From Bacilli bacterium (lineage in GTDB: Bacteria; Bacillota_I; Bacilli_A; RF39; UBA660): 64,000 nucleotides of DNA. Within the stretch, counting starts at the first letter, position 1; every line of letters begins with the position of its first letter. Made by a program: the position numbers and the translations under genes. The stretch covers positions 129,206 to 193,205 of the forward strand of contig JAQUVS010000001.1 of the NCBI GenBank assembly GCA_028693275.1, read 5' to 3'. This document shows, piece by piece, positions 18,719 through 49,583 of the stretch. The notes beneath the pieces were generated by a model that saw only the letters and a program-made list of their open reading frames with translations, made no database searches and had not been told where the DNA came from.

Positions 18719-19672
18719 ATGTATAATAGAAGTGGAAAAGAATTTAAAAATTTAGAAGAGCAAATAGAAATTCTAGAGTTCAAGGGATTAATTATATCAA
18801 ATTATGAATTTGCTAAAGAAGTTCTTTTAAGAGAAAATTATTTCTTTTTAAATGGATATAGACATTTATTCATGAAATCAGAAAATAATAAGAGATTTAT
18901 TGATGGTACTACATTTGAAGAATTATATAGTTTATTTTTATTTGATAGACAATTTAGAAATGTAATATTTAAGAATTTATTAATAATTGAAAATAATGTA
19001 AAATCAGTTATATCTTATCAATTATCATTAAAGTATGGGTATAAAGAAAATGATTATCTTAAAGAAAAGAATTTTACTAGAGATCCAGAAAAAAGTAGAC
19101 AAGTAAATGATTTACTTAAGAAAATGAAAAGACAAGTTAGATCTAATGCTAATCAGCATGCAGCTACAATGCATTATGTAAGTAATTATGGTTATATACC
19201 ATTATGGGTATTAGTAAAGGTTTTATCTTTTGGTATTGTAGGAGAATTATTCTCTATTTTAAAAAGAGAAGATCAAGAAATAATAGCTAATATGTATAAT
19301 ATGGATCCAGATGAATTAATTAATAATTTACCTATATTATCTAATTATAGAAATCTTTGTGCACATGAAGATATAGTTTTTGAAAATAAGACACAAAGAG
19401 TTATAGAAGATACTATATATCATCAATTATTAAAGATAAATAAGATGGATGGAGAATATATATATGGTAAGAATGATCTATTTGCTTTAATAATTTTAAT
19501 TAAACAGATGCTTAAAGATGTTGAATTTAAAGATATGGTTATAGAAATAGATAGATTATTGGATAATTTAGCTTATAATTTAAAAACAATACCTTTAAGT
19601 AAGGTATTAGATAGAATGGGATTTCCAGAAAATTGGGAGGATATTCAAAATATTAAAAAGAGGGTGGAATAA
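18719..19672 (+). CDS. Abi_2 (AbiD/AbiF-like) abortive-infection family protein, HEPN-type
   Basis: N-terminal ..EEQIEILEFKGLIISNYEFAKEVLLRENYFFLNGYRHLF.. matches the Abi_2 consensus; RNLCAHED is an HEPN Rx4-6H motif. Confidence 0.75.
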   Translation: MYNRSGKEFKNLEEQIEILEFKGLIISNYEFAKEVLLRENYFFLNGYRHLFMKSENNKRFIDGTTFEELYSLFLFDRQFRNVIFKNLLIIENNVKSVISYQLSLKYGYKENDYLKEKNFTRDPEKSRQVNDLLKKMKRQVRSNANQHAATMHYVSNYGYIPLWVLVKVLSFGIVGELFSILKREDQEIIANMYNMDPDELINNLPILSNYRNLCAHEDIVFENKTQRVIEDTIYHQLLKINKMDGEYIYGKNDLFALIILIKQMLKDVEFKDMVIEIDRLLDNLAYNLKTIPLSKVLDRMGFPENWEDIQNIKKRVE

Positions 19673-23497: not shown

Positions 23498-23553
23498 TAA
23501 AGAAAAAAATTCTTTATTTTTTTTTTATATTATGCTATAATTTATTTACACGT

Positions 23554-23627
23554 AGGGGCGTGGTATAATGGTAGCATAGGAGTCTCCAAAACTTTTGATG
23601 GGAGTTCGATTCTCTCCGCCCCTGCCA
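23554..23627 (+). tRNA. trnW: tRNA-Trp (anticodon CCA)
   Basis: AGGGGCG acceptor arm, D-loop TGGTATAATGGTAGCA, anticodon loop CTCCAAA, T-arm GGGAGTTCGATTCTCTC and 3' GCCA. Closely resembles Bacillus tRNA-Trp. Confidence 0.9.
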
Positions 23628-23692
23628 TATGAGAATAAAGCGAACTTTTACTATTTTATAGGAGGGTTCGCAGTTATATATAATCTTGAAGA

Positions 23693-23718
23693 AACACTTA
23701 AAAATTGAGTGTTTTTTT
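23693..23718 (+). terminator. rho-independent terminator after tRNA-Trp
   Basis: Hairpin AACACTtaaaaattgAGTGTT followed by T7. Confidence 0.6.
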
Positions 23719-23955
23719 ATGTGTTGTTATCTCATTATTGCTTGTTAAGGGGGGGGACTAAATAATAATTGAATTTGCATATGTAAAATATTGGTGTTAG
23801 CTCCTCGATAAAATCCCTTGCAGGTATAGATTGACTGATAAAGTATATAATTTTGTATTAAAATATTGATGTCTCTTGCTACGAAGCTCGTTTATATATA
23901 TTATATGTGATATAATTGAAGTAGCAGTAAAATTAACTAATTAAGGAGATTATAT

Positions 23956-24732
23956 ATGGAAAAAGAAAAAGAGAAAAAAAGGTTGTTAAAAATAATATAT
24001 TTTGATGAAGATAGTGCAATTGATTACATCAACATTGCTGATGGCGGATTGGTTTTAAAATCAGACGAAATAAAAGATGGAGATAAAGCACAAATGGGTA
24101 TTGATGCAGAAGTTGGGATTGAGAGTAAATTTTCATTATTTAATTTTTTCAAAGCTAATGCAAAAGTAGAAGCTAATGCAGAATTATTACGGTATGGAGA
24201 AAACATAGTAAAATCGACATTAACTAATACAATTCTTACTGATTATATTGTAAAAGCGAATATGGACAAGTATACAATGAAATTTGAAGATTATAAAATA
24301 TCTCCAATTACAAACTCATTAGCATTTTGGAAAATGTACACACCATATACTGTGATATTTAAAGATGAATATTCTGATAAAATTAGTCCTGAAGTTGACA
24401 TAACGAAATTAGATTATGTTATTGATAGTGTAAAAGGATATTATGAATTAGTAGCAGAAAAAGAGAAATCAAAAATGATTTTAAGATTTAATAGCAAGGG
24501 CTTTAGAAACAATTACAAATTATCAAATTTAATGAATATGAATTTAGTATATTATGGAGTTCTTGTTGGGTATAGTAGTCTTGAACAATATTCTGTTGAA
24601 AAAGAGTTTGATGTAAATGAAAAGGAAATAAATATAGATGAGATAAAAGGAACTGACAATTCTTCAGAAAAAGAAAAATTGCCTATATATGATATTGTTT
24701 TAGCAGGTGTAACAAATGAGACAAACAGATAA
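23956..24732 (+). CDS. hypothetical protein, upstream partner of the AAA+ ATPase (candidate two-gene system)
   Basis: 258 aa ORF with RBS AAGGAGA; I recognise no family. Overlaps the downstream gene by 17 nt. Confidence 0.55.
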   Translation: MEKEKEKKRLLKIIYFDEDSAIDYINIADGGLVLKSDEIKDGDKAQMGIDAEVGIESKFSLFNFFKANAKVEANAELLRYGENIVKSTLTNTILTDYIVKANMDKYTMKFEDYKISPITNSLAFWKMYTPYTVIFKDEYSDKISPEVDITKLDYVIDSVKGYYELVAEKEKSKMILRFNSKGFRNNYKLSNLMNMNLVYYGVLVGYSSLEQYSVEKEFDVNEKEINIDEIKGTDNSSEKEKLPIYDIVLAGVTNETNR

Positions 24733-25888
24733 ACCAAAAGTATTTATTTACTATGGACCTAGAAAAGAATTTGATAAATTAATTAAGAGCAAAAACGATA
24801 AAGAAGATTTTATGCCTGTTGTACAGGAATATGACAGGGAAAATAAACGAATACCAATTTATGTAGAAGGACAAACACCAAAAGTTGTTGATGTTAAAGA
24901 AAAAAGAAATATAAAAACATTAGTTGTTAATTCCGATGAATATTCAACCATTACAGAAGGTGCTGTTCAAAATCTTATTGCTATTCTTGATGGATTTGAT
25001 ATAGAAGAAATTTATCTACAAAATCCTCCAAAAGTAGTTGTGGAAAGTTTAAAGAAAGTATATCAAAATATATCAGAAGATTATTATGATTATGGGAAAA
25101 TAGATTTAGAGACAATTAAAGTTATAAATAGAAATTATCAAAAAAAAGTAATTGGTCAGGATAAAGCAATAAAACATTTATTGAGAACATTATTATCTTT
25201 TGTAAAATTTCCTAAAACTTCAAAACCATTAGTTATTATGTTTTATGGTCCTAGTGGAGTTGGAAAAACAGAGACTGCAAAGTATTTGAGTAAAAAAATG
25301 GGTGGAGAAATGTTTTATAAACAATTTTCTATGTTTCAAAATAATGATTTCTCCACTTACTTATTTGGTGGATTGAACTCACAAAATAGTTTTGCTAAAG
25401 AATTGATGGATAGAAATTCAAATGTAATTCTATTAGATGAATTCGATAAGGCACATAATCATTTTTATTCAGCATTTTATCAGTTATTTGATGAAGGAAT
25501 TTACACAGATAAAAATTACAATGTAAAACTTGACAACGCAATAATTATTTGTACATCAAACTACAAAACTACGGAGGAGATAAGAGAAAAGTTAGGAGAC
25601 CCTATTTATTATAGATTTAACGCATTCATTGAATTTAATGAATTGGATTATAAAGCTATTGAACAAATTGTTGATATTAAATATGATGAATATTATTCAC
25701 AACTATCAAATGAAGATAAGCTTTTAATTGATACACATAAATATCAAAACCTATCAATAAAAGAAAATATCAAAAATTATAACAAGAGGCTTAAAAATGC
25801 AAGAAAAATAGATATAATAGTAAAAGAGTTTATACTAGACATTTTATTAGAAAAAGCATTACAAGAAGAAGAAAATAAAGATATATAA
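24716..25888 (+). CDS. ClpA/ClpB D2-type (AAA_2) AAA+ ATPase with unknown ~150-aa N-terminal domain
   Basis: VIGQDKAIKHLL..PLVIMFYGPSGVGKTETAKYLS..VILLDEFDKAHNHFYSAFYQLFDEG..IIICTSN matches the AAA_2 (Clp D2) consensus. Confidence 0.75.
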   Translation: MRQTDKPKVFIYYGPRKEFDKLIKSKNDKEDFMPVVQEYDRENKRIPIYVEGQTPKVVDVKEKRNIKTLVVNSDEYSTITEGAVQNLIAILDGFDIEEIYLQNPPKVVVESLKKVYQNISEDYYDYGKIDLETIKVINRNYQKKVIGQDKAIKHLLRTLLSFVKFPKTSKPLVIMFYGPSGVGKTETAKYLSKKMGGEMFYKQFSMFQNNDFSTYLFGGLNSQNSFAKELMDRNSNVILLDEFDKAHNHFYSAFYQLFDEGIYTDKNYNVKLDNAIIICTSNYKTTEEIREKLGDPIYYRFNAFIEFNELDYKAIEQIVDIKYDEYYSQLSNEDKLLIDTHKYQNLSIKENIKNYNKRLKNARKIDIIVKEFILDILLEKALQEEENKDI

Positions 25889-26006
25889 AAATATAATAAA
25901 TTAATTTATGAATGTATGAAAATAATTAAAAATTTTTATATAGAGGTCAATGTCAAGACTTGTATTAAATGTTTTGCAGTTCAAAACGATTTAAAAAAGC
26001 TAATAA

Positions 26007-26035
26007 AAAAGCACTATCAAAAGTGCTTTTTCTTT
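26007..26035 (+). terminator. rho-independent terminator of the two-gene cassette
   Basis: AAAAGCACTatcaaAAGTGCTTTTT hairpin followed by T-run. Confidence 0.7.
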
Positions 26036-26113
26036 GTAATATATAGCTTTGCCCGTTGCGAACTCCGTCTGCAATTTTTACATATAAATTGTAGTTTGTT
26101 AGTAAGAAATTAT

Positions 26114-26764
26114 TCACTCAACTAATATGCATTTATCAAAATGTTTTCTCTCATAAGTTCCAACACATACAATATCTCTTTGGTTATTATTAATATCTAT
26201 TTCGTCAATAAATTTTAGTTCAAAGCCATCAACATTAAAATTTTTATTATCTATATCTGTGTAGTATTTTTCACTGACAAAATTTTCAATTTTTATATAC
26301 TCGTTAATAATATACATTCTATTCTGACTGATGATTTCTTCCAAGTTATCAGCATCATATTTTAATAACGGATTTTCAATAGTAGATTCGACATAAGATA
26401 TGAGCATTGCACTTTCATCATCGTTTGCCACTTTATTATAAACATTTCCATTATGAATAAGTGTGTTTTCATCAACATATTCATATTCCCAATTTTGATT
26501 TCCAAAGTACATATTAGATAGTGAATATATTTTTACTTCCTTATATTGATAGTCAGTATAGCCAGTATATAAAACTGAATTATCTTTAAATATTAAATAA
26601 GTATTTAATTCTTCATTGATAGTACTATCATATGTAATTTTATCCCTACTAATCCAATTCCCCTGTAACATTTCCATTATATTATTTTTCGTTATCTTTC
26701 CACAACCTAATAGAGTAAAACACATAACTGTTGTCAACAAACCAAATAATAATTTCTTTTTCAT
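26114..26764 (-). CDS. lipoprotein (signal peptide plus lipobox LLGC)
   Basis: MKKKLLFGLLTTVMCFTLLGCGK.. N-terminus; no recognisable domain. Confidence 0.6.
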   Translation of the reverse strand: MKKKLLFGLLTTVMCFTLLGCGKITKNNIMEMLQGNWISRDKITYDSTINEELNTYLIFKDNSVLYTGYTDYQYKEVKIYSLSNMYFGNQNWEYEYVDENTLIHNGNVYNKVANDDESAMLISYVESTIENPLLKYDADNLEEIISQNRMYIINEYIKIENFVSEKYYTDIDNKNFNVDGFELKFIDEIDINNNQRDIVCVGTYERKHFDKCILVE

Positions 26765-30489: not shown

Positions 30490-32013
30490 ATGAAAGTAGT
30501 AATATATGCTAGATATAGTTCTCATAATCAAAGCGAATGTTCAATTGAGGGGCAATTGGAAATATGTAGAGCTTATGCACAACAAAATAATTTTGATATC
30601 ATTGGAGAGTATATCGATAGAGCAACAACAGGCACTACAGATAATAGACCCCAATTCAGAAAAATGATAGAAGACAGTGAAAAACAATTATTTAATGGTG
30701 TTCTTGTTTATGCTCTGGACAGATTTGCTAGAAATAGATATGATAGTGCCGTTTATAAAGCAAAACTTAAAAAGAGTAATATAAAAGTTTATTCTGCACG
30801 AGAAAACATTAGTGATGACCCAGCTGGAGTTTTAATGGAAAGTGTATTAGAGGGAATGGCAGAATATTTTTCTTTGGAACTAGGACAAAAAGTCAAAAGA
30901 GGAATGAATTTAAATGCCGAGTGTTGCTTTTATAATGGTGGCAGTGTTCCATTAGGATATAAATTAGAAAATGTATATGATGAAAGATTTAATAACAATC
31001 TTAAAAAAGCAGTTAAAAAGCAATATGTTATTGATGAGGAAAAAGCATATATTGTTAAAAAGATATTTGAGATGTATGCTAATGATACAAGAATGGTAGA
31101 TATAATTAATTATTTAAATGGATTAAAATTAACAACATCAAAGAATAATCCATTCAATAAAAGCAGTATAGGAAGAATATTAACTAATAAAAAATACATT
31201 GGGATTTATAGTTATAATGGTATTGAAAAAGAAGATGGAATACCTAGAATAATTGAAGATGATTTATTTGAAAAAGTTCAAAGAGAACTTGTTAGAAACG
31301 GTTTGGCACCAGCTCGTAGTAAGGCAAAAACAGCCTATTTATTAACAGGAAAATTATATTGTGGAAAATGTAAAGATAAAATGACTGGAACATCAGGAAC
31401 TTCAAAAACGGGCAAATTACATACATATTATATGTGTAAGACAGCTAAACATAGTAAAGACCTATGTAATATGGGTAAAGTTAAAAGAAAAAACATAGAA
31501 GATATTGTTGTTGAATTGGCACAAAGTCTGTTAACATCAGAAAACATTAATCAGGTAGCTAATAAAGTTGTGGAAATTGCTCATAATTCCCAAGATGATA
31601 CACAATTAAAAAGATTACAAAAATCGTTAAGAGATGAAGAAAAAAGAAAAGAAAACACATTAAAAGCTGTAACAGTCTGTGAAGATGATAGTACAAGAAA
31701 GTCTTTATTTGATGAAATTAGTAATATAAATGAAAATATCAAGAATATTGAAAAGCTATTAATACAAGAAGAAAGCAATCATATATTAATAAGTACAAGT
31801 GAAATAAAGTTTTTTCTAAAACAACTTATGAAAGGCAATATACAAGACTTTAAGTATCGTAAAATGCTTATTAATACACTTATAAATAGAGTTTATCTAT
31901 ATAAAAGTAAGATTGTTATAGTATATAATATTAACAACAGAGAACAAGAGATAGAAATATCTCTTATCAAAAACATTGAATGTTCAACTGTTGATAGTAC
32001 TGCTCTGCCATAA
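30490..32013 (+). CDS. large serine recombinase (resolvase N-terminal domain, recombinase domain and zinc-ribbon domain)
   Basis: MKVVIYARYSSHNQSECSIEGQLEICRAYA.. carries the catalytic Ser context YARYSS. 507 aa with cysteine pairs (CGKC..C..C) in the zinc-ribbon region and a coiled-coil C-terminus. Confidence 0.85.
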   Translation: MKVVIYARYSSHNQSECSIEGQLEICRAYAQQNNFDIIGEYIDRATTGTTDNRPQFRKMIEDSEKQLFNGVLVYALDRFARNRYDSAVYKAKLKKSNIKVYSARENISDDPAGVLMESVLEGMAEYFSLELGQKVKRGMNLNAECCFYNGGSVPLGYKLENVYDERFNNNLKKAVKKQYVIDEEKAYIVKKIFEMYANDTRMVDIINYLNGLKLTTSKNNPFNKSSIGRILTNKKYIGIYSYNGIEKEDGIPRIIEDDLFEKVQRELVRNGLAPARSKAKTAYLLTGKLYCGKCKDKMTGTSGTSKTGKLHTYYMCKTAKHSKDLCNMGKVKRKNIEDIVVELAQSLLTSENINQVANKVVEIAHNSQDDTQLKRLQKSLRDEEKRKENTLKAVTVCEDDSTRKSLFDEISNINENIKNIEKLLIQEESNHILISTSEIKFFLKQLMKGNIQDFKYRKMLINTLINRVYLYKSKIVIVYNINNREQEIEISLIKNIECSTVDSTALP

Positions 32014-32023
32014 TTGGAATATT

Positions 32024-32073
32024 AAACTTGGTATTAATTATCAAGTTTTTTTGATATAATTTAAATAGAGGTG
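32024..32073 (+). repeat. hairpin-T-run-TATAAT-AGAGGTG cassette, copy 1
   Basis: AAACTTGGTAttaatTATCAAGTTT followed by T-run, TATAAT at 32055-32060 and AGAGGTG at 32067-32073, directly after the recombinase stop. Confidence 0.7.
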
Positions 32074-33677: not shown

Positions 33678-33710
33678 AAAAAAGTCCAGGTTAAGCCGGA
33701 CTTTTTTTTA
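33678..33710. terminator. bidirectional terminator between convergent genes
   Basis: AAAAAGTCCaGGttaaGCCGGACTTTTTTTT hairpin. Confidence 0.7.
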
Positions 33711-34709
33711 TACTTTAAAATATTTTTGATTTTTACTTGTTGGTTTATCTGGGATAGTAGGTTTAACTAAACCTGCTTCTATAGCTGGATTTAAATAATT
33801 ATCTCTAAATGTATCTTTAGATTTTAATTCTAATTTTTCCATAAGTTCAGAAGAACTCATAGGCAAATCATATTCCATTACATTTAATAATTTTGTTATA
33901 TAACTATTTATATGATTTATTTGACTGCTAGTGTCACTTATTAATTCTTCTAAAACTTTATTAATCATTTTTAACATAAATTCTATAAAATCATTTGAAT
34001 TACCATTTTTATGGCAATTAGATATAGCTGTATAATACTCATTTTGATATTCTTTTATTCTAGTTTCAATAGGCAAGTATTTAAATATACCTTTCCATTT
34101 AGATAAAATAATATTTTGCCATAATCTGGCTATTCTTCCATTACCATCACTAAAGGGATGTATAAATACAAATTCATAGTGAAAGATAGAAGATAATAAT
34201 AGAGGGTGTATTTCTTCATTAGATTCTTTCATCCAATCAAATAAATTATTCATTAGATCGTTAACTAATTTAGGAGGAGGTGCCATAAATATACATTTAT
34301 CCCCATCAAATACGCCTTCATTCCCTTTTCTAAAGTCTCCTGATTCATCTAATATTAAATAAGTCATAATACCATGTATTTCTTTTAAATCAGTTATTGA
34401 ATAAGGATTAGTATCTTTTATTTTTTCATAAGCATTAAATGCATTTTTAACTTCTTGAATTTCTTTTTGTGGACCAATTACTGTTTTACCATTAATAACA
34501 TCCCTCATTTGATTTAGTGATAATGAATTAGCTTCTATAGCAAGTGAAGAATGTATAGAATTGATTCTGTTATTTTTTCTTAATATAGGCATTTTATTTA
34601 AATTGTTATAATTATCTAATTTACCGATTTTTTCCATTATACTTGATATATAATCAAGCATAGTATTTGTAATAGTAAATGGTGGGATATATTTTTCCAT
34701 AGTTATCAC
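33708..34709 (-). CDS. Fic/DOC family protein (AMPylase-type)
   Basis: Canonical Fic motif HPFSDGNGRIAR; an inhibitory-helix-like SLAIEAN occurs upstream. Confidence 0.85.
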   Translation of the reverse strand: MITMEKYIPPFTITNTMLDYISSIMEKIGKLDNYNNLNKMPILRKNNRINSIHSSLAIEANSLSLNQMRDVINGKTVIGPQKEIQEVKNAFNAYEKIKDTNPYSITDLKEIHGIMTYLILDESGDFRKGNEGVFDGDKCIFMAPPPKLVNDLMNNLFDWMKESNEEIHPLLLSSIFHYEFVFIHPFSDGNGRIARLWQNIILSKWKGIFKYLPIETRIKEYQNEYYTAISNCHKNGNSNDFIEFMLKMINKVLEELISDTSSQINHINSYITKLLNVMEYDLPMSSSELMEKLELKSKDTFRDNYLNPAIEAGLVKPTIPDKPTSKNQKYFKV

Positions 34710-34905
34710 CTCATAGTTATATTATACCACATTAGTAAAAAATATACTACACATCTTACATGTTATCTTACATGTTATCTTGCATAGCGAAAATCTATAA
34801 TTTGACAACCAAGTATTTAATATGTTAAATTAATTTTAGTAATTACTGGTATTTTTTACGTGATTATTTGAAATAATAATAACGTATGTGCCATATTGAA
34901 ATACA

Positions 34906-34934
34906 AAACTTGATATTTATTATCAAGTTTTTTT
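34906..34934 (+). repeat. hairpin cassette copy 2 (perfect palindrome, no -10/RBS part)
   Basis: AAACTTGATAtttatTATCAAGTTT followed by T7, in the divergent Fic/ThyA-like intergenic region. Confidence 0.7.
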
Positions 34935-35115
34935 GTTAGGAACTCAAAATATTAATTTAGCAACATAGTTGTTTGGAATATTAGTAATATCTTAAATTAT
35001 TATATTTATATAATTGAAACAAAAAAATCAAATAAATAGATTTAAAATAAAAAGTATCTAAAATAGTTATATTGTTTTTTTAATATTTAGTATATAATAA
35101 TTTTAGGGGGCAATT

Positions 35116-36453
35116 ATGAAAATTAATGGAAAAGATATAAGAATAAATAGGGAAACAGCAAGAATTTCAGAAATGGATAGAGTATATTGTAGTTTAGTAG
35201 AAGAAATACTGACTGAAGGTGTTGAAACTAAAAATAGAACAGGAATTAATACTATAAGTATTGCCGGCTGGAACTATAAATTTAATGTCGGAAAAGAATT
35301 CCCTGTAGCAGAAACTAAAGATGTTAAAGTTATGAATTGTACATCAGAAATTCAGTGGATTCATCAAGTTCAAAGTAATGAAGTTAAATGGTTACAAGAC
35401 CGTGGAAATAATACTTGGGATTTATGGGTCGTTGACGAAGATGGTATTTATCGTACTTATGAACAAGGAGCTAACTCATTAGATGAGCCTGACAAAATAG
35501 TACAAGTTAGAGATGTTAAAGGGAATTTAATGACCGATAAATATAATAAACCATTAATGGCTAAATCATCTATGATAATTAAAGATGAAAATAATAATGA
35601 AAAATATGCTACTATAAAAACGGCAACTTTCTTTGGTAAGGAATATGCTGGCACAATAGGTGAAGCATATGGTTATATTACAAAACTTTACCAAAGACCA
35701 CAATATGTGGAAAATACTATAAAAAACAATTCAACAGATCGCCGCATGAATATAGTTCTATGGCAAGATGCTCATTTAGAAAAAGCTGTATTGCCATCAT
35801 GTGTTTGGTCTAGTGAATATAAAGTTACACCAGATGGAAAATTACATTCATATATTCATCAAAGGAGTGCAGATGTTCCATTAGGATTACCATTTAATAT
35901 TACACAGTACGCTATTGAATTGTCAAAATATGCTAAAGCATCAGGACTAGAAGTTGGCACAATGAGTTGGAGTATTATGGATGCTCACATTTATGTTAAT
36001 CAACTAGATGGTATTAAAAAACAATTAAAAAGATATAAATACATGTCTGAGTATGTAGATATAATTCAAAATAGTAGTGATGAAGAAGTAGAAATACTTT
36101 ATAATAAACAAGTTGATTTTTTTGATAAATTACATAAGAGAGCAACTGTTTTGCTACTAGAAGATATAAATCAATTACCAATGTCTAAACGTGTAAAAAT
36201 ATTACAAAATATTGATTATGAACTTGCTAAATCTTATGAAGAAGCATTTGAAATGAAAGTTTCATTTGAACATATTTTAACAAGAGAAGAACCGGTTCTT
36301 GAACTTGCAAGTCATAATTCAGTTTTTGAATATTCAACAGATTATGTATCAAAGACTGATCCATATACTAAAGAAAATCCAATAGGTAATAGGGAAATAG
36401 TTTTGAAGAAATATACTCCTACACCATTTATAAGAATGCCGATTGCGCAATAA
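35116..36453 (+). CDS. thymidylate synthase (ThyA) family protein with large insertions (445 aa)
   Basis: TS-family blocks ..KNRTGINT.., LPSCVWSSEY (catalytic Cys), HQRSADVPLGLPFNITQYA, MDAHIYVNQ and a C-terminal ..MPIAQ. Roughly 180 extra residues compared with canonical 264-280 aa ThyA. Confidence 0.7.
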   Translation: MKINGKDIRINRETARISEMDRVYCSLVEEILTEGVETKNRTGINTISIAGWNYKFNVGKEFPVAETKDVKVMNCTSEIQWIHQVQSNEVKWLQDRGNNTWDLWVVDEDGIYRTYEQGANSLDEPDKIVQVRDVKGNLMTDKYNKPLMAKSSMIIKDENNNEKYATIKTATFFGKEYAGTIGEAYGYITKLYQRPQYVENTIKNNSTDRRMNIVLWQDAHLEKAVLPSCVWSSEYKVTPDGKLHSYIHQRSADVPLGLPFNITQYAIELSKYAKASGLEVGTMSWSIMDAHIYVNQLDGIKKQLKRYKYMSEYVDIIQNSSDEEVEILYNKQVDFFDKLHKRATVLLLEDINQLPMSKRVKILQNIDYELAKSYEEAFEMKVSFEHILTREEPVLELASHNSVFEYSTDYVSKTDPYTKENPIGNREIVLKKYTPTPFIRMPIAQ

Positions 36454-36564
36454 GAAAGTTTAATTAAAGGTTTAGTTTTTATAATTGTTGTAATAAAAAT
36501 TATTTAGATAAATATATAATATAAATTTGGGATTTTTCATATTTCCCTTTTATATTTAAATATA

Positions 36565-36613
36565 AAACTTTATATTTATTATCAAACTTTTTTGTTATAA
36601 TACAAATAGAGGT
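36565..36613 (+). repeat. hairpin cassette copy 3 (degenerate stem)
   Basis: AAACTTTATAtttatTATCAAACTT followed by T-run, TTATAAT and AGAGGTG; about 48 of 54 positions identical to copy 4. Confidence 0.65.
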
Positions 36614-36620
36614 GTTTGTA

Positions 36621-37211
36621 GTGGATAAAGAGGTAACTTTGAAAGATAAGAAATATGTTCGTGTAATGTTTGGAATAACATCAAGTGCTAATGGATTTGA
36701 ATTTAAAGAAAATGAAGTTAATGTTTCTGATAATTGGAATCCAAAGGAAACTGAACCTGATTTAATGGGTGGCTTTAATTTTTCTGTCGAGGACAAGATA
36801 TTAAGGTATTTAGTTAGAGGGGACACTATATGTGATGTATCTATTCCAGAAGATTCTGAAATAATAGATTGTCCTAGTGAAAGTTGTCCACAAGGGATAT
36901 TTAGAGCAAACAAAATTATTATTTCAAATATAAGACCTATGACAGATGAAATAGCAATGGATTTTTATATTAAGTCTCATTTACCAGAAAAATCATATTA
37001 CAAATCATTTGCAGGATGTGCAGTACGTGGATTCAAAAATACTACTATGGCAATAATAAAGGATAAAGTTAATAAAGCTAATATCGATATAGTAATAAGT
37101 GAATTTGAAGATTTTGTTAAGCCAGGATATTATTGGGATAAAAGAGGAAATAGTGATTTCGTTAACGAAGTTCGTGAGTATCTTTATAATATTAAAACTA
37201 GAAATATTTGA
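36621..37211 (+). CDS. hypothetical protein
   Basis: Start GTG 36621 six nt after AGAGGTG (the track start is 36612); driven by the repeated cassette. I recognise no family. Confidence 0.45.
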   Translation: MDKEVTLKDKKYVRVMFGITSSANGFEFKENEVNVSDNWNPKETEPDLMGGFNFSVEDKILRYLVRGDTICDVSIPEDSEIIDCPSESCPQGIFRANKIIISNIRPMTDEIAMDFYIKSHLPEKSYYKSFAGCAVRGFKNTTMAIIKDKVNKANIDIVISEFEDFVKPGYYWDKRGNSDFVNEVREYLYNIKTRNI

Positions 37212-37216
37212 ATATA

Positions 37217-37266
37217 AAACTTGATATTTATTATCAAGTTTTTTTGTTATAATAAGTATAGAGGTG
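37217..37266 (+). repeat. hairpin cassette copy 4
   Basis: AAACTTGATAtttatTATCAAGTTT followed by T-run, TATAAT at 37248-37253 and AGAGGTGG at 37259-37266. Confidence 0.7.
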
Positions 37267-39932: not shown

Positions 39933-40775
39933 ATGGGAAAAGAGATAATTAGTGTATGCTATGAAGTTAATAAAGAATGTAATTTAAAATGTGATTATTG
40001 TATTACAAGTGATAATGAAAATAATAAAATAGATTATAAAATGATAATAAAATATATTGTATCTTTAAATCCTAAGAGAATAGTTATATCAGGAGGAGAG
40101 CCTCTATTAGATCCTGATTTAATAAAGAAGTTAGCAGTATTAAGAGAATTATGCCCAGATAGTTATATTTCTCTTAGTACTAATGGAACGGTAAAATATG
40201 ATTATAATTTAATTAATAAATATGTAGATTGTATAGATGTTAGTTTACCTAGTTTATCGTCTGATGTTTATGAGTTGATGAGAGGTAGAAATTTATTATC
40301 TAATGTAAAAGAAAATCTTGAAGATTTAAAAGAATTAGATATTGATTTAAGATTAAGTTTTATGTTAACTAGAGTTAATAAAGATGAAATATTTGACTTC
40401 TTAGCGTATGCAGAAAGTTTAAATGTAAAAGAAGTTAGAATAGGTAGATATTTTCCTTTTAGAGGTGGAAATAAGTATTCTTTTAAATATGAACTAAGTC
40501 AAGATGAAATAGATTTAGTAGTTAGTAAAATAAATAAAGAAGACTATCCTTTTAAAATAGTTTTACCTATTGGTAATTTACAATTGATGAGTGATAGTTA
40601 TCTTACTATTAATCATATGGGACAGGTTTCTACTCCTACATATGATGGTAAAAATATTTTATTAGAAATAAATGAAGATACAAATAATGATGTTGATTTG
40701 AATATAGGAAATCAAAATGATATTTTTGAGAAAGTTCTTCTTAAAAATAATTGTAAAAGAACAAATAATAAATAA
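39933..40775 (+). CDS. radical SAM domain protein (activase-like)
   Basis: CNLKCDYC CxxxCxxC cluster motif near the N-terminus and a GGEPLL SAM-binding motif. Confidence 0.7.
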   Translation: MGKEIISVCYEVNKECNLKCDYCITSDNENNKIDYKMIIKYIVSLNPKRIVISGGEPLLDPDLIKKLAVLRELCPDSYISLSTNGTVKYDYNLINKYVDCIDVSLPSLSSDVYELMRGRNLLSNVKENLEDLKELDIDLRLSFMLTRVNKDEIFDFLAYAESLNVKEVRIGRYFPFRGGNKYSFKYELSQDEIDLVVSKINKEDYPFKIVLPIGNLQLMSDSYLTINHMGQVSTPTYDGKNILLEINEDTNNDVDLNIGNQNDIFEKVLLKNNCKRTNNK

Positions 40776-41665: not shown

Positions 41666-43795
41666 GTGATTAGTGTGAACGATTTAAATGAATACTTTGA
41701 TGATATGTTTAAAGAAGTTGATCCAAATATACTTTTAGATGAACAGCAAAGAGAAGCTATTACTATTGATTCTGATAATCTTTTAGTTGTGGCGGGAGCA
41801 GGTAGTGGAAAGTCTACTACTATGGTAGCTAAAGTAAAATATTTAATTGATAAGTGTGGATATAAAGAATCGGAAATTGTAGTTGTCTCTTTTACAAAAA
41901 AGGTAAAAGAAGAATTATCAGAAATCATACATGATAAATTTGGACTAAAAAATGTAGCTGTAACAACTTTTCATAGCTTAGGTTTAGAAATAATTAATAA
42001 GAGCGGTGAAGATGTCGCTGATGTAGTTGATGAAAAAGGTCAATACAAAATATTTTCCAATTATATTAAAAATGTTTTATTTAAGGATAAAGAAAAATTT
42101 AGTTTATTGAATGATGCTTTTTCTAAATATTTAAATTTTGGTGATCAATGGATGTCTTTTGATGATTTTGATACATATCATACTAAAAGTTTTGTTGATA
42201 AATTTAATAAATCAGAAGAAAGTATTAAAGTGTATATTGAAAATCAGATTCTAAGAAGAAGACAATATAAAAAGACAATTAATGGAGAATATACAGCATC
42301 CAAAGAAGAAGTAGATATAGCAAATCTTCTTTATATAAATGGAATAGATTATAATTATGAGCTGAAGTTAAATAATGGATATAAAAAGGGAAGGGGATAT
42401 CATCCTGATTTTTATATTCATCAATTAGAAAAAGAAAATTATATAGAACATTTTGGGGTTGACCAAGATGGAAGTAATTCTATGTATAGTGAAAGCGAAT
42501 TAAAAAATTATTTGTCTATTTTAAAAATTAAGGATAAGTATATTAATAGTTATGAAAACAGAAATAAATTTATTGTTACCTATTCTAGGTATGATAATGG
42601 AAAAACATATTTAACAGATTTAATTGATCAACTTAAGCATAATGGTTATGTTCCACACAAAAGATCAGATGAAGAAATATTTGCTAAATTAATGGATACA
42701 GGTACAGATTATTATTTTTCAGTTTTCGTTGATAAAATTTTGGTACCTGTAATATCAATGTATAAGCAAAGTGGATATTCATATAGAGATTATGATTCAT
42801 TAATAGAGTCAAATGATGGTAATTTGAAAAATCAATTAATAGTTTTAAAAATGTTTCACGAATATTATGAGAAAGAACTTAGTAATAAACATTTAATAGA
42901 TTTTGAAGACATGATTTTAAAGGCATATACTTTAATGCCGATTATTAAAGAAAAGGATTTGGGTGTAGATTATAAGTACTTGATAATAGATGAATATCAA
43001 GATATTTCGAATCAAAGATTAAACTTAGTTAAGAGGCTAGTTGATTTATTTGATGCTAAAGTAATGGCTGTTGGTGATGATTGGCAAACAATATTTGGAT
43101 ATGCAGGTTCTAGAATAGATTTATTTAAAAATTTTTCAAAAGAACTTCCGAATTCAGATCAAGTAGCTATAGAACATACTTATAGAAATAGCCAAGAATT
43201 AATAGATATAGCTGGAGAGTTTGTACTTAAGAATCCTTATCAAATTAAGAAACATTTGATATCTGATAAACATACTATCAATCCTGTTGAAATTATTTTT
43301 TATGATGATGAAGAAAAAGAAAAGGTAAATGGTAATAGAGCTAAATATGTAGACGCAATTCTTGGTAATTTAAGTAAAATAAATCCAAATTGTTCTGTAT
43401 TACTATTAGGTAGGTATCAAAAAGATATATACAAAATAGATGATAAAAAGTACTTTAATATAATGGGTTCAAAAATAAAATCTGTTAATTATGAAAATAT
43501 TGATTTGGAATTTTTAACTATTCATAAGGCAAAGGGATTGGGAAGAGACTATGCGATTTTATTAGATCTTAATGATGATAAATATGGTTTTCCAAGTAAG
43601 ATAGATGATTTACCTATAATAAAGTTAATAAGACCTAAAATAGAAGAAAGTATAGATTTTCCTGAAGAGAGAAGGCTTTTCTATGTTGCTTTAACTAGAA
43701 CAAAGAATAAAATTTATATCTTAGTTCCTAAATGTAAAGAATCAGAGTTTTCTATAGAAATAAAAAAATTCCATAATGTGCGTATATTAAAATAG
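41666..43795 (+). CDS. UvrD/PcrA/Rep-family SF1 DNA helicase
   Basis: Helicase motif I AGAGSGKST, DEYQD (II), GDDWQTIFGYAG (III), TIHKAKGL, and C-terminal LFYVALTR. The start may be GTG 41675. Confidence 0.85.
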   Translation: MISVNDLNEYFDDMFKEVDPNILLDEQQREAITIDSDNLLVVAGAGSGKSTTMVAKVKYLIDKCGYKESEIVVVSFTKKVKEELSEIIHDKFGLKNVAVTTFHSLGLEIINKSGEDVADVVDEKGQYKIFSNYIKNVLFKDKEKFSLLNDAFSKYLNFGDQWMSFDDFDTYHTKSFVDKFNKSEESIKVYIENQILRRRQYKKTINGEYTASKEEVDIANLLYINGIDYNYELKLNNGYKKGRGYHPDFYIHQLEKENYIEHFGVDQDGSNSMYSESELKNYLSILKIKDKYINSYENRNKFIVTYSRYDNGKTYLTDLIDQLKHNGYVPHKRSDEEIFAKLMDTGTDYYFSVFVDKILVPVISMYKQSGYSYRDYDSLIESNDGNLKNQLIVLKMFHEYYEKELSNKHLIDFEDMILKAYTLMPIIKEKDLGVDYKYLIIDEYQDISNQRLNLVKRLVDLFDAKVMAVGDDWQTIFGYAGSRIDLFKNFSKELPNSDQVAIEHTYRNSQELIDIAGEFVLKNPYQIKKHLISDKHTINPVEIIFYDDEEKEKVNGNRAKYVDAILGNLSKINPNCSVLLLGRYQKDIYKIDDKKYFNIMGSKIKSVNYENIDLEFLTIHKAKGLGRDYAILLDLNDDKYGFPSKIDDLPIIKLIRPKIEESIDFPEERRLFYVALTRTKNKIYILVPKCKESEFSIEIKKFHNVRILK

Positions 43796-43826: not shown

Positions 43827-44216
43827 ATGAAAAATGTTGAAGTTGTAGCAGCAGTAATACAGGACGGTAATAAAATTTTAGCTACTAGAAGAGGCTATGG
43901 TGATTTTATCGGTATGTGGGAATTTCCTGGTGGAAAAATTGAAGAAAATGAGACTCGCGAAGTAGCCTTAATAAGGGAAATTAAGGAAGAATTAGATGCG
44001 GATATTGAAGTAGGAAAATTTTTAACAACCGTAGAATATGATTATCCAAAATTTCATTTAATGATGCATTGTTATTTATGTCATTTAAAGGAAAGTAAGA
44101 TAACTCTCGTAGAACACAGTGATGCTAAGTGGCTAGAAAGTGATGAGTTATCATCGATTGATTGGTTGCCAGCGGATATAGAAGTAGTAGATAAAATCAA
44201 AAAATTAGTAAGGTAG
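43827..44216 (+). CDS. NUDIX hydrolase (MutT-like)
   Basis: Nudix box GGKIEENETREVALIREIKEELDA. Confidence 0.85.
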   Translation: MKNVEVVAAVIQDGNKILATRRGYGDFIGMWEFPGGKIEENETREVALIREIKEELDADIEVGKFLTTVEYDYPKFHLMMHCYLCHLKESKITLVEHSDAKWLESDELSSIDWLPADIEVVDKIKKLVR

Positions 44217-44223
44217 GTATATT

Positions 44224-47007
44224 ATGGAAATGAATACAGCAGTAACAAAATCGCTATTTGATAAAGAAGTTGATTCTTTAGTTTATAATCCTAATATAGT
44301 TATAAATGAAAATAGTAAAAATATTAAAGAAAAAATTCAAGAGCTATTACAATCATCAAGTAGAGTTGATATTGCTGTTAGTTATGTTGTATGGTCAGGG
44401 CTCTCTTTAATATATGATGATTTAAAGAAGTTTGATTCTAATAGTAGGTTATTATTAACTACAGAAGGTATGGTTACGGATCCTAGATCACTACAAAAAT
44501 TAAGTGAGTTAAATATGCAGGTAAAAGTTTACGTACCTTTTAATGGTGCAAAAGGATTCCATTTAAAGACATATCTATTTGAAAATGAATCCAAAAGAAC
44601 TTTATTAATTGGAAGTTCTAATATATCATCTAGGGCATTCGGTTTAGTTCATGAAATGGCTGTAGAAATTGATGCTGACAGTAAAGGTTATATAGTAGAA
44701 AAATACAATGAAGTATTTGAACAATTATGGGAAGATGAGTATTCTGAATTCTTGTCAGAACAATATATTGAAGGATATAAAATTCTTTATAAAGAATATA
44801 AAAAAATGAAAAAAGATATTGAAAACATAGTTGAAGATAGCGGTTTAATTAAACCTAATTATATGCAGGAAAAAGCATTGAAGTCACTGGAAGATTGTAG
44901 AGAGACAACTGATAGAGGATTAGTTATTGCAGCTACTGGAACAGGTAAAACGTATTTATCAGCATTTGATGTAAAAAATAGTAAATATAGAAAGGTTCTC
45001 TTCTTGGTTCACAATAGGCTCATTCTCACATCAGCAATTAAAACATTTAAAAAAGTATTTAATGATAAAAGTATGCTAGAATTAACATCTAATAATGTTG
45101 AAGAAGTTTATACTTCAGATTTTATATTTACTACTGACAAAACAGCATATAATTGTTTATTTAATAAAATTCCAAAAGATTATTTTGAATATATAATATA
45201 TGATGAAGCTCATAAAATTGGTTTAGAAACAAAATATAGTGAGTTGCTAGAATATTTTACTCCTAAGTTTACTTTAGGAATAACTGCAACTCCAGAAAGA
45301 ACAGATAATCCAGATTATTTATTTAAAACATTTAAGTACAGTATTCCTTATGAAATTAGATTACTTGAAGCAATGAAATATGAACTGGTTTGTCCGTTTA
45401 CTTATTATGGATTAACGCTTAAAGAAAATTTATTAAAAGCAAACGAAGAATATGATTATGCTGAATTAGCAAAATATTTGAAAAAAGTAATTGCTGAAAA
45501 AGGTCATTACGGAGAAAAATTAAAGTGTCTAATTTTTTGCTCATCAATTAATGAAGCAAAATCAACATCTGAAGAACTTAGTAAAATAGGATTTAAATCA
45601 GTTGCTTCGGTAAGCTCAGAATCAGGAAATGATAGAGATTCAACTGAGCAGTATATTAATGATTTAAAATCTGATATTGATGGTACTTTAGAAATTATTT
45701 GTACAGTAAATAAATTTAATGAAGGAATTGATATTCCTGATATAAATACAATTATTATGCTTAGAAATACAGTATCATCAATAATTTACTTGCAGCAATT
45801 AGGGCGCGGTCTAAGAAAAACAAATGATCAGCATAAGTATGTGACAATATTTGATATAATTGGCAATTCAAAAAATAATTATTCAATTGCTCAAGTATTA
45901 ACAGGTAATACTACAGTTGATAAAAGAAATCTATATAGATATGCAAACGAAGAGTTTCAAACTGTTTCTCCTTTTATAAATGTACAGATAGAAAAAGAAG
46001 CAATGGAAAATATAATTAAATCAATTTCCAATAATTTTACTGTTAAAACAAAAATTAAAGAAAAGTTTAGAGATGAATTATTTAGATTTAAAGAAATACC
46101 TACTTTACTTGAACTTTATATAAATCCTAATTTTAAAGAGTTAGATTTGTTACAATTGTTATTTAGAAATTTCTATGACCCATTTGAAGAATATTATTAT
46201 ACAAAATATTTTATAGAAAAGTCTAACAAGTTTATTAATGATTTTTTTACTCTTATTTCTCAATTTGTATTTAGGGGATATGATAATAAAACATTAAAAG
46301 ATTATGTGAAAATTTTGAAGGGTGAAAAAGTAAAAAATGAAATTTTAGAAAAAGTACTACTTTCAACTGAAATTACAAATGGAATATCAACTTTTATCTT
46401 TAGTGATTATTATAAAGCGACAAAAAATAATCCAAAAGTTTTTGTTATCAGTGATAATTATTTAACTCTTAATGATGAAATATATAAAGAATTAGAAAAA
46501 AATAATGCAATGAAGTTATTTGAAGAACATATCGAACTTTTCGAATATTTAAGTAATCAAATTGAATATCAGATGAAACCATTTGATTTAGTTGACAAAG
46601 GTGAATTTTTATTTAATTCTGGAAGTAAAGATTGCTATATGAATGTTGTTGGTGAAAGAATTGATAAAGATAGAAAAACAGTGTACTGTACTATTAACAT
46701 AACAAGAAAAGATTCATTCTATGATAATTACATTATTGATGATCATAAATTTGTTTATTATACGCAAGGTTCATCGACTGAAGTAAAAGCAAAAGAGAAA
46801 ATTGATATGTTTATAAAAGATAATTACAAATTTAATGTGTGTGCAAAATTTCCACATTTGGGTTATACGAATACCGTATATTTTAATTTAGGCGAAGTGG
46901 ATATATCAAAAATATCTGATGTTATCGAAACTGAAAAAGGCAAGTTTAATCATGAAATTGAATTTGAATTAAAAGATAAATTTCCAATCGAATTATTACA
47001 ATATTGA
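44224..47007 (+). CDS. PLD-family nuclease domain, SF2 (DEAH-like) helicase and DUF3427 C-terminal domain fusion
   Basis: N-terminal HKD motif GFHLKTYLF..LLIGSSNIS. SF2 motifs GLVIAATGTGKT and IYDEAHK, plus helicase C-terminal QQLGRGLR. The ~300-aa C-terminal domain is DUF3427-like. Confidence 0.75.
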   Translation: MEMNTAVTKSLFDKEVDSLVYNPNIVINENSKNIKEKIQELLQSSSRVDIAVSYVVWSGLSLIYDDLKKFDSNSRLLLTTEGMVTDPRSLQKLSELNMQVKVYVPFNGAKGFHLKTYLFENESKRTLLIGSSNISSRAFGLVHEMAVEIDADSKGYIVEKYNEVFEQLWEDEYSEFLSEQYIEGYKILYKEYKKMKKDIENIVEDSGLIKPNYMQEKALKSLEDCRETTDRGLVIAATGTGKTYLSAFDVKNSKYRKVLFLVHNRLILTSAIKTFKKVFNDKSMLELTSNNVEEVYTSDFIFTTDKTAYNCLFNKIPKDYFEYIIYDEAHKIGLETKYSELLEYFTPKFTLGITATPERTDNPDYLFKTFKYSIPYEIRLLEAMKYELVCPFTYYGLTLKENLLKANEEYDYAELAKYLKKVIAEKGHYGEKLKCLIFCSSINEAKSTSEELSKIGFKSVASVSSESGNDRDSTEQYINDLKSDIDGTLEIICTVNKFNEGIDIPDINTIIMLRNTVSSIIYLQQLGRGLRKTNDQHKYVTIFDIIGNSKNNYSIAQVLTGNTTVDKRNLYRYANEEFQTVSPFINVQIEKEAMENIIKSISNNFTVKTKIKEKFRDELFRFKEIPTLLELYINPNFKELDLLQLLFRNFYDPFEEYYYTKYFIEKSNKFINDFFTLISQFVFRGYDNKTLKDYVKILKGEKVKNEILEKVLLSTEITNGISTFIFSDYYKATKNNPKVFVISDNYLTLNDEIYKELEKNNAMKLFEEHIELFEYLSNQIEYQMKPFDLVDKGEFLFNSGSKDCYMNVVGERIDKDRKTVYCTINITRKDSFYDNYIIDDHKFVYYTQGSSTEVKAKEKIDMFIKDNYKFNVCAKFPHLGYTNTVYFNLGEVDISKISDVIETEKGKFNHEIEFELKDKFPIELLQY

Positions 47008-48866: not shown

Positions 48867-49583
48867 ATGATTTGGAATCCTTGGAGAGGTTGTCATAAAT
48901 ATAGTGATGGTTGTAAGTATTGCTATATTCATAAAGGAGATAAAAAAAGAGGAATAGATACTTCTTTAATTGTTTTGACTAAGGATTTTGATAAGCCAAT
49001 TGCTAAACTAAAAGATGGTACTTATAAAATCAAAAGTGGTTTAGTTTATACTTGTTTTTCATCTGATTTTTTAATAGAAGAAATGGATCAATATAGATTA
49101 GAATGCTATGATATGATGAGGCAAAGAAGCGATCTTAATTTTTTATTTTTAACTAAAAGAATAGAAAGATTTATGGAAGTTTTACCAAGTGATTGGGATA
49201 ATGGTTATGATAATGTAATTGTATGCTGTACTATTGAAAATCAAAAAACAGCTAACTATCGTTTAAATATTTTTAAAGATTTACCAATTAAGCATAAATG
49301 TATTACTATTCAACCAATGCTTGAAAAAATTAATATTATTGACTACTTAAATGATATAGAATTAGTTGTAGTTGGTGGTGAATCGGATATAAATGCAAGA
49401 TTTTTAGATTATGATTGGGTTTTAGATATTAGAGAACAATGTATAAAGACTAATACTAATTTTGAGTTTAGACAATGTGGAACTCATTTTATTAAGGATG
49501 ATAAATTATTTAATATACCAACTAAAAATTTATGTAAACAAGCGATACTAGCTAATATTAATTACTACAGGGAGAAAAAATAA
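48867..49583 (+). CDS. DUF5131 (phage Gp37/Gp68 family) three-Cys-motif protein
   Basis: N-terminus MIWNPWRGCHKYSDGCKYCY matches the family start tWNPxtGCxxxSxGCxxCY (Cx6Cx2C). Confidence 0.65.
   Translation: MIWNPWRGCHKYSDGCKYCYIHKGDKKRGIDTSLIVLTKDFDKPIAKLKDGTYKIKSGLVYTCFSSDFLIEEMDQYRLECYDMMRQRSDLNFLFLTKRIERFMEVLPSDWDNGYDNVIVCCTIENQKTANYRLNIFKDLPIKHKCITIQPMLEKINIIDYLNDIELVVVGGESDINARFLDYDWVLDIREQCIKTNTNFEFRQCGTHFIKDDKLFNIPTKNLCKQAILANINYYREKK

Follow-up and report, generated by a model that had tools for sequence, protein, structure and literature searches.

A compact pair of overlapping genes lies downstream of a tRNA-Trp gene in a 64-kb stretch of the genome of an uncultured member of the Bacilli (assembly GCA_028693275.1, contig JAQUVS010000001.1, positions 129,206–193,205; hereafter the window, numbered from its first nucleotide), and the question raised by this locus is what the pair does. 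A first-pass annotation of the sequence had described a 258-amino-acid (aa) protein of unknown function and a ClpB-like AAA+ ATPase with a novel N-domain, and had proposed an ATPase-plus-partner anti-phage pair in a variable hotspot that could not be assigned to any described system. The proposal was right and the pair can be assigned: by homology, the cassette is almost certainly Dodola, with a role in defence. The system is already known (Millman et al. 2022), and the window pair is a typical member of it rather than a new one. Its features are as follows.

23956–25888, plus strand: Dodola (PADLOC DolA and DolB models)
23956–24732, plus strand: dolA, encoding an acidic DUF6414 protein of 258 aa, putative partner or effector (PADLOC, Pfam, homology to the Bacillus cereus FM1 protein, AlphaFold2)
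24085–24189, plus strand: segment of dolA encoding residues ~44–78, two stretches of alternating hydrophobic and polar residues around the aromatic tip SKFSLFNFF
24716–25099, plus strand: N-terminal alpha/beta domain of DolB (residues 1 to ~128), specific to the DolB family and conserved
25100–25888, plus strand: AAA+ module of DolB, of the Hsp100/Clp D2 type, with a D2-small-like helical lid (PADLOC, Pfam, PDB profile, Foldseek)

Identification of the cassette as Dodola

To assign the pair, both translated products were compared with defence-system and protein-family models. DolA matched the PADLOC DolA model PDLC03837 with E = 3.5e-68 (residues 7–252 on profile positions 2–257 of 258), and DolB matched the DolB model PDLC03838 with E = 9.9e-129 and 428 bits (residues 8–384 on profile positions 3–374 of 375). 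In Pfam, DolA is a DUF6414 protein (PF19952; 71.6 bits against a cut-off of 25) and DolB an AAA_2 protein (E = 1.4e-16); NCBIfam holds no model for either. A DUF6414 protein together with a ClpB-like ATPase is the combination by which Dodola is defined in 10.1101/2024.10.26.620412 and in PMC11514479. A DolB of 100% identity has been deposited in NCBI from a metagenome-assembled genome (MAG) as 'AAA family ATPase [Bacilli bacterium]'.

The experimentally verified Dodola is that of B. cereus FM1 (CP009368, system SG130), marked 'Verified' in Table S21 of the supplement to 10.1101/2022.05.11.491447. DolA of the window is 34% identical to the FM1 protein over its full length (E = 7e-44), and DolB is 40% identical over residues 11–380, N-domain included (E = 2e-83). 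The FM1 contig CP009368 was also recovered independently among plasmid matches for the pair. The two loci are alike in that both proteins are full-length homologues that hit the same PADLOC and Pfam models and are encoded in the order dolA–dolB, with overlapping stop and start codons. They differ in that the FM1 copy resides on a megaplasmid whereas the window copy is chromosomal beside tRNA-Trp, in a gut-type Bacilli known from an uncultured MAG, and the sequences have diverged to 34–40% identity.

In the window, dolA (23956–24732) and dolB (24716–25888, 390 aa) are open reading frames on the same strand that overlap by 17 nt, as the first-pass annotation had reported, and both are real genes, as homology searches returned hundreds to thousands of homologues for each. 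dolA is preceded by the ribosome-binding site AAGGAG ~8 nt 5′ of its ATG, and dolB by AGGTG 6 nt 5′ of its ATG. Because the dolB site sits inside the 3′ end of dolA, translational coupling of the two genes is plausible. On this homology and layout, the locus as a whole is very probably best explained as a Dodola anti-phage system in which dolA (DUF6414) is followed by a translationally coupled dolB.

dolA and dolB form an obligate pair

A profile built from 32 DolA sequences retrieved 241 genomic relatives, and the best 80 of these 241 (33–66% identity) were examined for linkage to dolB. The genes were obligately paired: a same-strand DolB homologue lay downstream of dolA in 78 of the 78 loci that had 1.1 kb or more of sequence beyond dolA, and the co-occurrence check proposed in the first-pass annotation thus found the pair together throughout. 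In 77 of the 78 loci, dolB started between −19 and +128 nt from the end of dolA, and in the 78th the homologue was aligned through its AAA+ part only. The remaining two loci of the 80 are truncated, yet carry the start of dolB. The hosts of the 80 loci included Clostridia, Bacilli, many Actinomycetota, Leptospira, Treponema, Muribaculaceae, Melainabacteria, an alphaproteobacterium and Methanobrevibacter.

Among 1.84 billion representative proteins searched with a hidden Markov model (HMM), 588 DolA clusters were found, nearly all of them stand-alone proteins of 240–290 aa. A single example, P0241, is a head-to-tail DolA–DolB fusion of 661 aa, the DolB part of which is 32% identical over residues 8–377; such a natural fusion, if real, argues for a physical DolA–DolB complex. 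The pair was also carried by 25 Firmicute plasmids, one of which, from B. thuringiensis, has its copy adjoining Thoeris, and phage genomes were nearly devoid of it, with one match on a 5-kb fragment.

DolB combines a Clp D2-type ATPase with a family-specific N-domain

As judged from its sequence, DolB is a catalytically intact, single-ring AAA+ ATPase of the Hsp100/Clp D2 type with a family-specific N-domain. AlphaFold2 (AF2) modelled the protein confidently, with a mean predicted local distance difference test score (pLDDT) of 89.5 and a predicted template modelling score (pTM) of 0.84. A single AAA+ module, capped by a helical lid, spans residues ~135–390. The DolB family profile matched the D2 modules of ClpC, ClpA, ClpB and CLPB (Skd3) among PDB sequences with E between 1e-25 and 1e-20, and Foldseek retrieved ClpC1, ClpA and Skd3 at E ~1e-13. 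The motifs GQD, GPSGVGKTE, LLDEFDKAH and CTSN noted at first pass are all in the translation and are invariant or nearly so in 30 homologues. Invariant across these 30 sequences are Walker A K184 and T185, Walker B D241 and E242, sensor-1 N282, the arginine finger R300 and sensor-2 R363; the sensor-1 and arginine-finger regions lie 17 residues apart. We take K184, E242, N282, R300 and R363 to be equivalent to K611, E678, N719, R756 (arginine finger) and R815 (sensor-2) of Escherichia coli ClpB. As the arginine finger acts in trans and is intact, a working oligomeric DolB ring is implied.

The pore-loop region of DolB departs from that of Clp proteins. In the HMM alignments, YLFGGxxSQNSF of DolB stands opposite LxGAPPGYVGY of Clp with a deletion of 3–6 residues. 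DolB has no GYVG here, but an invariant F226 is found at or near that position. Direct reading of the translated AAA+ module revealed no [ILVM]G[FLM] tripeptide of the ClpP-docking loop. DolB shares with the Hsp100/Clp D2 modules of ClpB, ClpC, ClpA and Skd3 the AAA_2 fold, Walker A and B motifs, sensors, arginine finger and lid over its C-terminal 260 residues, and resembles Skd3/CLPB further in joining one ring to a non-Clp N-domain. Unlike Hsp100/Clp proteins, it has no D1 ring, Clp_N domain, coiled-coil M-domain or IGF/IGL ClpP-docking loop, its pore-loop region is shorter and lacks GYVG, and it is paired with an obligate DUF6414 partner. The earlier statement that a Clp N-domain and a ClpP loop are missing was correct.

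The N-domain (residues 1–128) was confidently modelled by AF2 except for the loop 44–64, and carries 11 invariant positions, among them G14, P15, F19, D40, S73, Y76, E81, N103, P104 and Y126. It matched no Pfam, PDB-sequence (even at E ≤ 10) or PHROG family, and a Pfam search with 22 DolB N-domains gave scattered single chance matches only. The domain had first been called novel; it is instead the typical N-domain of the DolB family, as the PADLOC profile covers residues 8–384 and the validated DolB aligns from residue 11.

Two other defence-associated ATPases resemble DolB in part. The ATPase PDC-M37B of PDC-M37 matches DolB residues 117–379 with E = 6.5e-23, but at 79 bits against 428 for the DolB model and with the N-domain outside the match, and PDC-M37 is an unvalidated candidate; in a survey of the B. 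cereus group, the text reports PADLOC calling Dodola and PDC-M37 on one locus (PMC11811056). IetAS, comprising the ATPase IetA and the protease IetS, follows a similar two-gene logic in which an AAA+-type ATPase stands beside a second protein. However, only its P-loop region matches DolB (E ~5e-6, residues 170–244), DolA is not a protease and the pair is not a member of IetAS.

DolA is an acidic protein with a flexible amphipathic segment

DolA was modelled by AF2 at moderate confidence (pLDDT 65, pTM 0.65) as a structured alpha/beta core with a flexible or disordered segment at residues 31–81. Across the family, ~31 positions are invariant, many of them polar. The family is uniformly acidic, with a median isoelectric point (pI) of 4.9 and a median net charge of −9.5, which makes nucleic-acid binding by DolA unlikely. 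Foldseek searches of the PDB and of viral models gave no significant structural neighbour, the DolA profile had zero matches to PDB sequences even at E ≤ 10, and no PHROG was matched. No transmembrane (TM) helix was predicted, the maximum 19-residue Kyte–Doolittle mean being 0.67–0.78. A PD-(D/E)xK-type nuclease motif was looked for by eye and rejected, as no E-x-K is consistently conserved.

Within the flexible region, the two alternating stretches of residues ~44–78 surround a tip that reads SKFSLFNFF in the window and SWLPFL in actinobacteria. The beta hydrophobic moment of the segment is in the top decile in the family average; tested sequence by sequence, strand 1 passes in 25 of 32 and strand 2 in 12 of 32. 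AF2 gave the segment a pLDDT below 50, and the alternating pattern was also seen by eye in the validated FM1 DolA. This amphipathic segment may be of functional significance and is treated here as a lead, not a finding. Separately, in P0330, a remote DolA relative of 349 aa, the N terminus is extended by a hydrophobic stretch of ~85 residues, possibly folding as two TM helices. P0330 may be a gene-calling artefact; if real, it bears on membrane association.

Expression signals around dolAB

The signals flanking the two genes are as follows.

23554–23627, plus strand: tRNA-Trp (CCA), a flanking landmark outside the system (ARAGORN; Rfam RF00005 at 54 bits)
23876–23916, plus strand: predicted dolAB promoter, with a −35-like hexamer TTGCTA and a perfect extended −10 TGaTATAAT at 23908–23916 (consensus scan and sequence reading)
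26005–26032, both strands: bidirectional intrinsic terminator, a hairpin with a T-run, common to dolAB and a convergent gene at 26114–26764 on the minus strand

The tRNA-Trp(CCA) gene is the sole tRNA in the window by ARAGORN and Rfam. It is separated from dolA by 328 nt, in agreement with the ~330 bp given at first pass, and likewise lies ~345 nt 5′ of dolA in L081, a relative with 89% identity. An Rfam scan of the 328-nt spacer detected no structured RNA or riboswitch, with the tRNA alone matched. The extended −10 is located ~40 nt 5′ of dolA and is conserved in L081, the closest relative, in which the block TATGTGATATAAT is unchanged. Promoter-like sites were not enriched over shuffled sequence (26 against 23.6), and the dolAB promoter is a prediction. 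Terminator-type sites numbered 3 in the region against 0.4 ± 0.6 in shuffles, and the RNA fold of the dolAB terminator (−14.9 kcal/mol, z = −3.5) was equalled in stability by 0 of 200 shuffles. The terminator that had been attributed to the cassette is real, at 26005–26032 rather than 26007–26035, and is predicted to work on both strands.

The spacer between the tRNA and dolA also contains a G8 homopolymer (23749–23756), the sole G run of at least 7 in the window, which has a GC content of ~25%. The tract is length-polymorphic, with G8 here and G5 in L081. As it lies ~150 nt upstream of the predicted promoter and outside it, a role as a phase-variation switch is doubtful.

Published activity of Dodola

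In B. subtilis, the Dodola of B. cereus FM1 confers protection from SPP1, as stated in PMC11514479 citing Millman 2022. For the Streptococcus thermophilus system, the same text describes no effect from one vector, while PMC12322248 describes protection that was broad and strong when the system was carried on a low-copy vector or the chromosome, no activity from the high-copy vector pNZ123 and a growth delay upon integration. Dodola homologues are thus reported to act on S. thermophilus phages, and also on Lactococcus cremoris phages. All SPP1 escapers of Dodola tabulated in the supplement of 10.1101/2022.08.27.505566 carry A108V in the tail-assembly chaperone gp17.5. The mechanism of Dodola is given as unknown in the text of PMC12322248 and in that of a 2026 review.

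Models for Dodola action

Tentatively, we read DolB as the sensor and motor of the system and DolA as its effector. DolA and DolB would form one complex in which DolB oligomerises as a ring, as expected of an arginine finger acting in trans. Recognition of the phage tail-assembly chaperone, or of the complex of that chaperone with the tape-measure protein, would fall to the DolB N-domain, alone or together with DolA. ATP-driven remodelling would then switch on DolA, a conserved and mildly toxic partner, and phage production would be halted.

Several points weigh against this scheme, or against taking the window copy as an active Dodola. Identity to the validated system is only 34–40%, and a second Bacillus Dodola homologue is marked as not verified by Millman et al. 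(supplement of 10.1101/2022.05.11.491447), so homology is no guarantee of activity. The lone DolA–DolB fusion could be a frameshift or a gene-calling artefact between overlapping genes. Processive unfolding by DolB is uncertain because the canonical GYVG pore-loop tyrosine is absent and the loop is 3–6 residues shorter, with the invariant F226 nearby. The near-complete protection at high multiplicity of infection (MOI) reported for S. thermophilus in PMC12322248 fits a late-acting abortive model poorly. Finally, the casting of DolA as effector rather than adaptor is drawn from its conservation and from reported toxicity.

Were DolA an adaptor, as MecA is for ClpC, a disaggregase-like DolB could sabotage tail assembly directly by stripping or unfolding the chaperone or the tape-measure complex, leaving the phage without tails and dispensing with a host-directed toxic effector. 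The DolB motor most resembles Hsp100 rings that remodel proteins, among them the single-ring disaggregase Skd3/CLPB, and the only escape mutation known affects a morphogenesis chaperone. The phages reported as sensitive are all siphoviruses, a morphology that needs such a chaperone. We nevertheless consider direct sabotage rather unlikely, as the canonical substrate-gripping GYVG loop is absent from DolB and DolA, with its ~31 invariant and often polar positions, is as conserved as a catalytic protein, an unusual trait in an adaptor, which would evolve fast. Intrinsic toxicity is also suggested by the growth delay and the sensitivity to copy number reported in the absence of phage (PMC12322248). 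A more specific version of the DolA-effector model is abortive infection by a membrane-active DolA, in which the segment at ~44–78 would be a pre-stem beta-hairpin, inserting into the membrane after DolA has been unfolded or released by DolB. Its two alternating runs around an aromatic tip, their top-decile beta moment in the family average, the pattern visible by eye in FM1 DolA and the disorder of the segment in the AF2 model are all consistent with such a hairpin. So are the acidic character of DolA (pI 4.9), by which nucleic-acid binding is unlikely, the hydrophobic N-terminal extension of one remote homologue (P0330) and the growth delay reported in PMC12322248. Yet the second strand passes in just 12 of 32 sequences, Foldseek against PDB and viral models revealed no pore-forming toxin of similar structure, no TM helix is predicted (Kyte–Doolittle maximum 0.67–0.78), a surface hairpin or a shallow 32-sequence alignment would look alike, and survival at high MOI has been reported (PMC12322248). 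Membrane activity of this kind is clearly unlikely. It is a long shot that DolA is a new kind of membrane-inserting beta-hairpin effector, held latent in the DolB-ring complex and freed when the N-domain detects the tail-assembly chaperone; if true, Dodola would be an 'unfoldase-armed pore', a mechanism without a described counterpart in bacterial immunity.

Two further readings were considered. DolA might be an OB-fold-like nucleic-acid binder, with the system acting on phage DNA or RNA and DolB serving as loader or remodeller. An OB-fold likeness is remarked on in PMC11514479, the structural paragraph of which has the DolA and DolB labels swapped, and the weak Foldseek matches of DolA fell repeatedly on the N-domains of AspRS and LysRS, Est3, Rim1, RPA, RMI, ExoVII and a phage tRNA_anti-like protein. 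However, every one of these matches was non-significant (best E 0.27–0.34, TM-score ≤0.22), the family is acidic with a median net charge of −9.5, and the escape mutation affects a protein of structural assembly and not a replication gene, which together make this reading very improbable. That the pair is a housekeeping proteostasis chaperone and co-chaperone unrelated to phage defence, as the AAA_2/Clp D2 similarity of DolB might suggest, is effectively refuted. DolB scores ~10–20 times below every NCBIfam Clp equivalog cut-off (ClpA, 81 against 993 bits; ClpV, 79 against 885; ClpB, 56 against 1232), and is a single ring without Clp_N, M-domain or ClpP loop. The pair is sporadic and patchy, occurring on plasmids and in defence islands, and anti-phage activity of Dodola homologues has been demonstrated experimentally according to PMC11514479 and PMC12322248. 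A match of DolA or of the DolB N-domain to a housekeeping chaperone or adaptor family had been named at first pass as the result that would overturn an anti-phage role, and no such family fits.

dolAB resides in a multi-system defence island

The following neighbouring genes were identified with defence and protein-family models.

18719–19672, plus strand: AbiD/Abi_2 abortive-infection gene, 5′ of tRNA-Trp (PADLOC AbiD, E = 9.5e-60)
30490–32013: large serine recombinase
33708–34709, minus strand: SoFic, a Fic-domain protein (SoFic defence model, E = 6.8e-43)
39933–40775, plus strand: pVip-like radical-SAM protein (weak pVip similarity, E = 4e-19)
41666–43795, plus strand: UvrD/GajB-like helicase, without a visible GajA partner
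43827–44216, plus strand: PDC-S07 (E = 8e-52)
44224–47007, plus strand: type IV methyl-directed restriction enzyme with PLD and ResIII helicase (E = 5.9e-88)
48867–49583: PDC-M30B-like gene
58260–59891: PDC-M26A-like gene

dolAB is thus one of several defence systems gathered in this island, alongside AbiD, SoFic, the type IV restriction enzyme and PDC genes. The conserved core had been thought to give way to accessory content at the tRNA. The boundary lies further upstream: the core of ribosomal, SecY, RpoA, L13 and S9 genes stops near 17.6 kb of the window, and since AbiD is found at 18719–19672, the defence-rich accessory region starts before tRNA-Trp. AbiD is followed by an HtrA-like Trypsin_2-PDZ protease, the start of which overlaps the end of AbiD.

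The closest relative, in which dolAB is ~89% identical in DNA, shares only window positions 23529–26080, from tRNA-Trp through the terminator. DNA homology with both L081 and L082 stops at 26080, just beyond the terminator. Past the shared stretch, the closest relative has a C5 methylase and a HATPase_c_3/SduA_C gene. Because downstream content differs from that of a relative this similar, tRNA-Trp marks a hotspot whose cargo varies. Delivery of dolAB as a discrete integrase-borne islet through tRNA integration was considered and rejected, as no further copy of the tRNA-Trp 3′ end turned up in the window when up to 3 mismatches were allowed, and no flanking direct repeats bracketing the cassette were found. 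The serine recombinase at 30490–32013 lies past the point where homology with the relatives ends. Between 26114 and 32013, a lipoprotein-like protein and two membrane proteins on the minus strand and three small XRE/winged helix-turn-helix regulators accompany this recombinase, and the stretch may be the remnant of an integrated element.

Two further observations concern the island downstream. An element of ~63 nt occurs four times (32011–32073, 34893–34955, 36552–36614 and 37204–37266) and contains the palindrome AACTTGATAtttaTTATCAAGTT, a T-run, TATAAT and the ribosome-binding site AGAGGTG. Three of the copies lie directly 5′ of the open reading frames starting at 32078, 36612 and 37221, and the fourth ~160 nt before that at 35116; the element looks like a reused promoter/operator cassette co-regulating several island genes. 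The gene at 35116–36453 on the plus strand, just after SoFic and among defence genes, encodes a thymidylate-synthase-family protein of 445 aa with ~130 extra C-terminal residues. It had no PADLOC match and could have a nucleotide-modifying or nucleotide-depleting function rather than that of a housekeeping ThyA.

Implications

The identification itself matters little, as PADLOC or DefenseFinder would label the locus Dodola. Its value is in placing a Dodola copy within the defence island of an uncultured Bacilli genome, at a variable hotspot adjacent to tRNA-Trp, and in the comparative handles on mechanism that it brings together. These comprise the strict coupling of dolA and dolB across phyla and one archaeon, the natural fusion, an intact trans-acting ATPase without the canonical pore loop, and the properties of DolA, namely uniform acidity, ~31 invariant residues and a conserved, flexible amphipathic segment. 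Among them, the DolA–DolB fusion, the acidity of DolA and its conserved amphipathic flexible segment are minor new leads. Read alongside the published escape mutation in gp17.5, the comparative handles point to concrete binding and mutagenesis work on Dodola.

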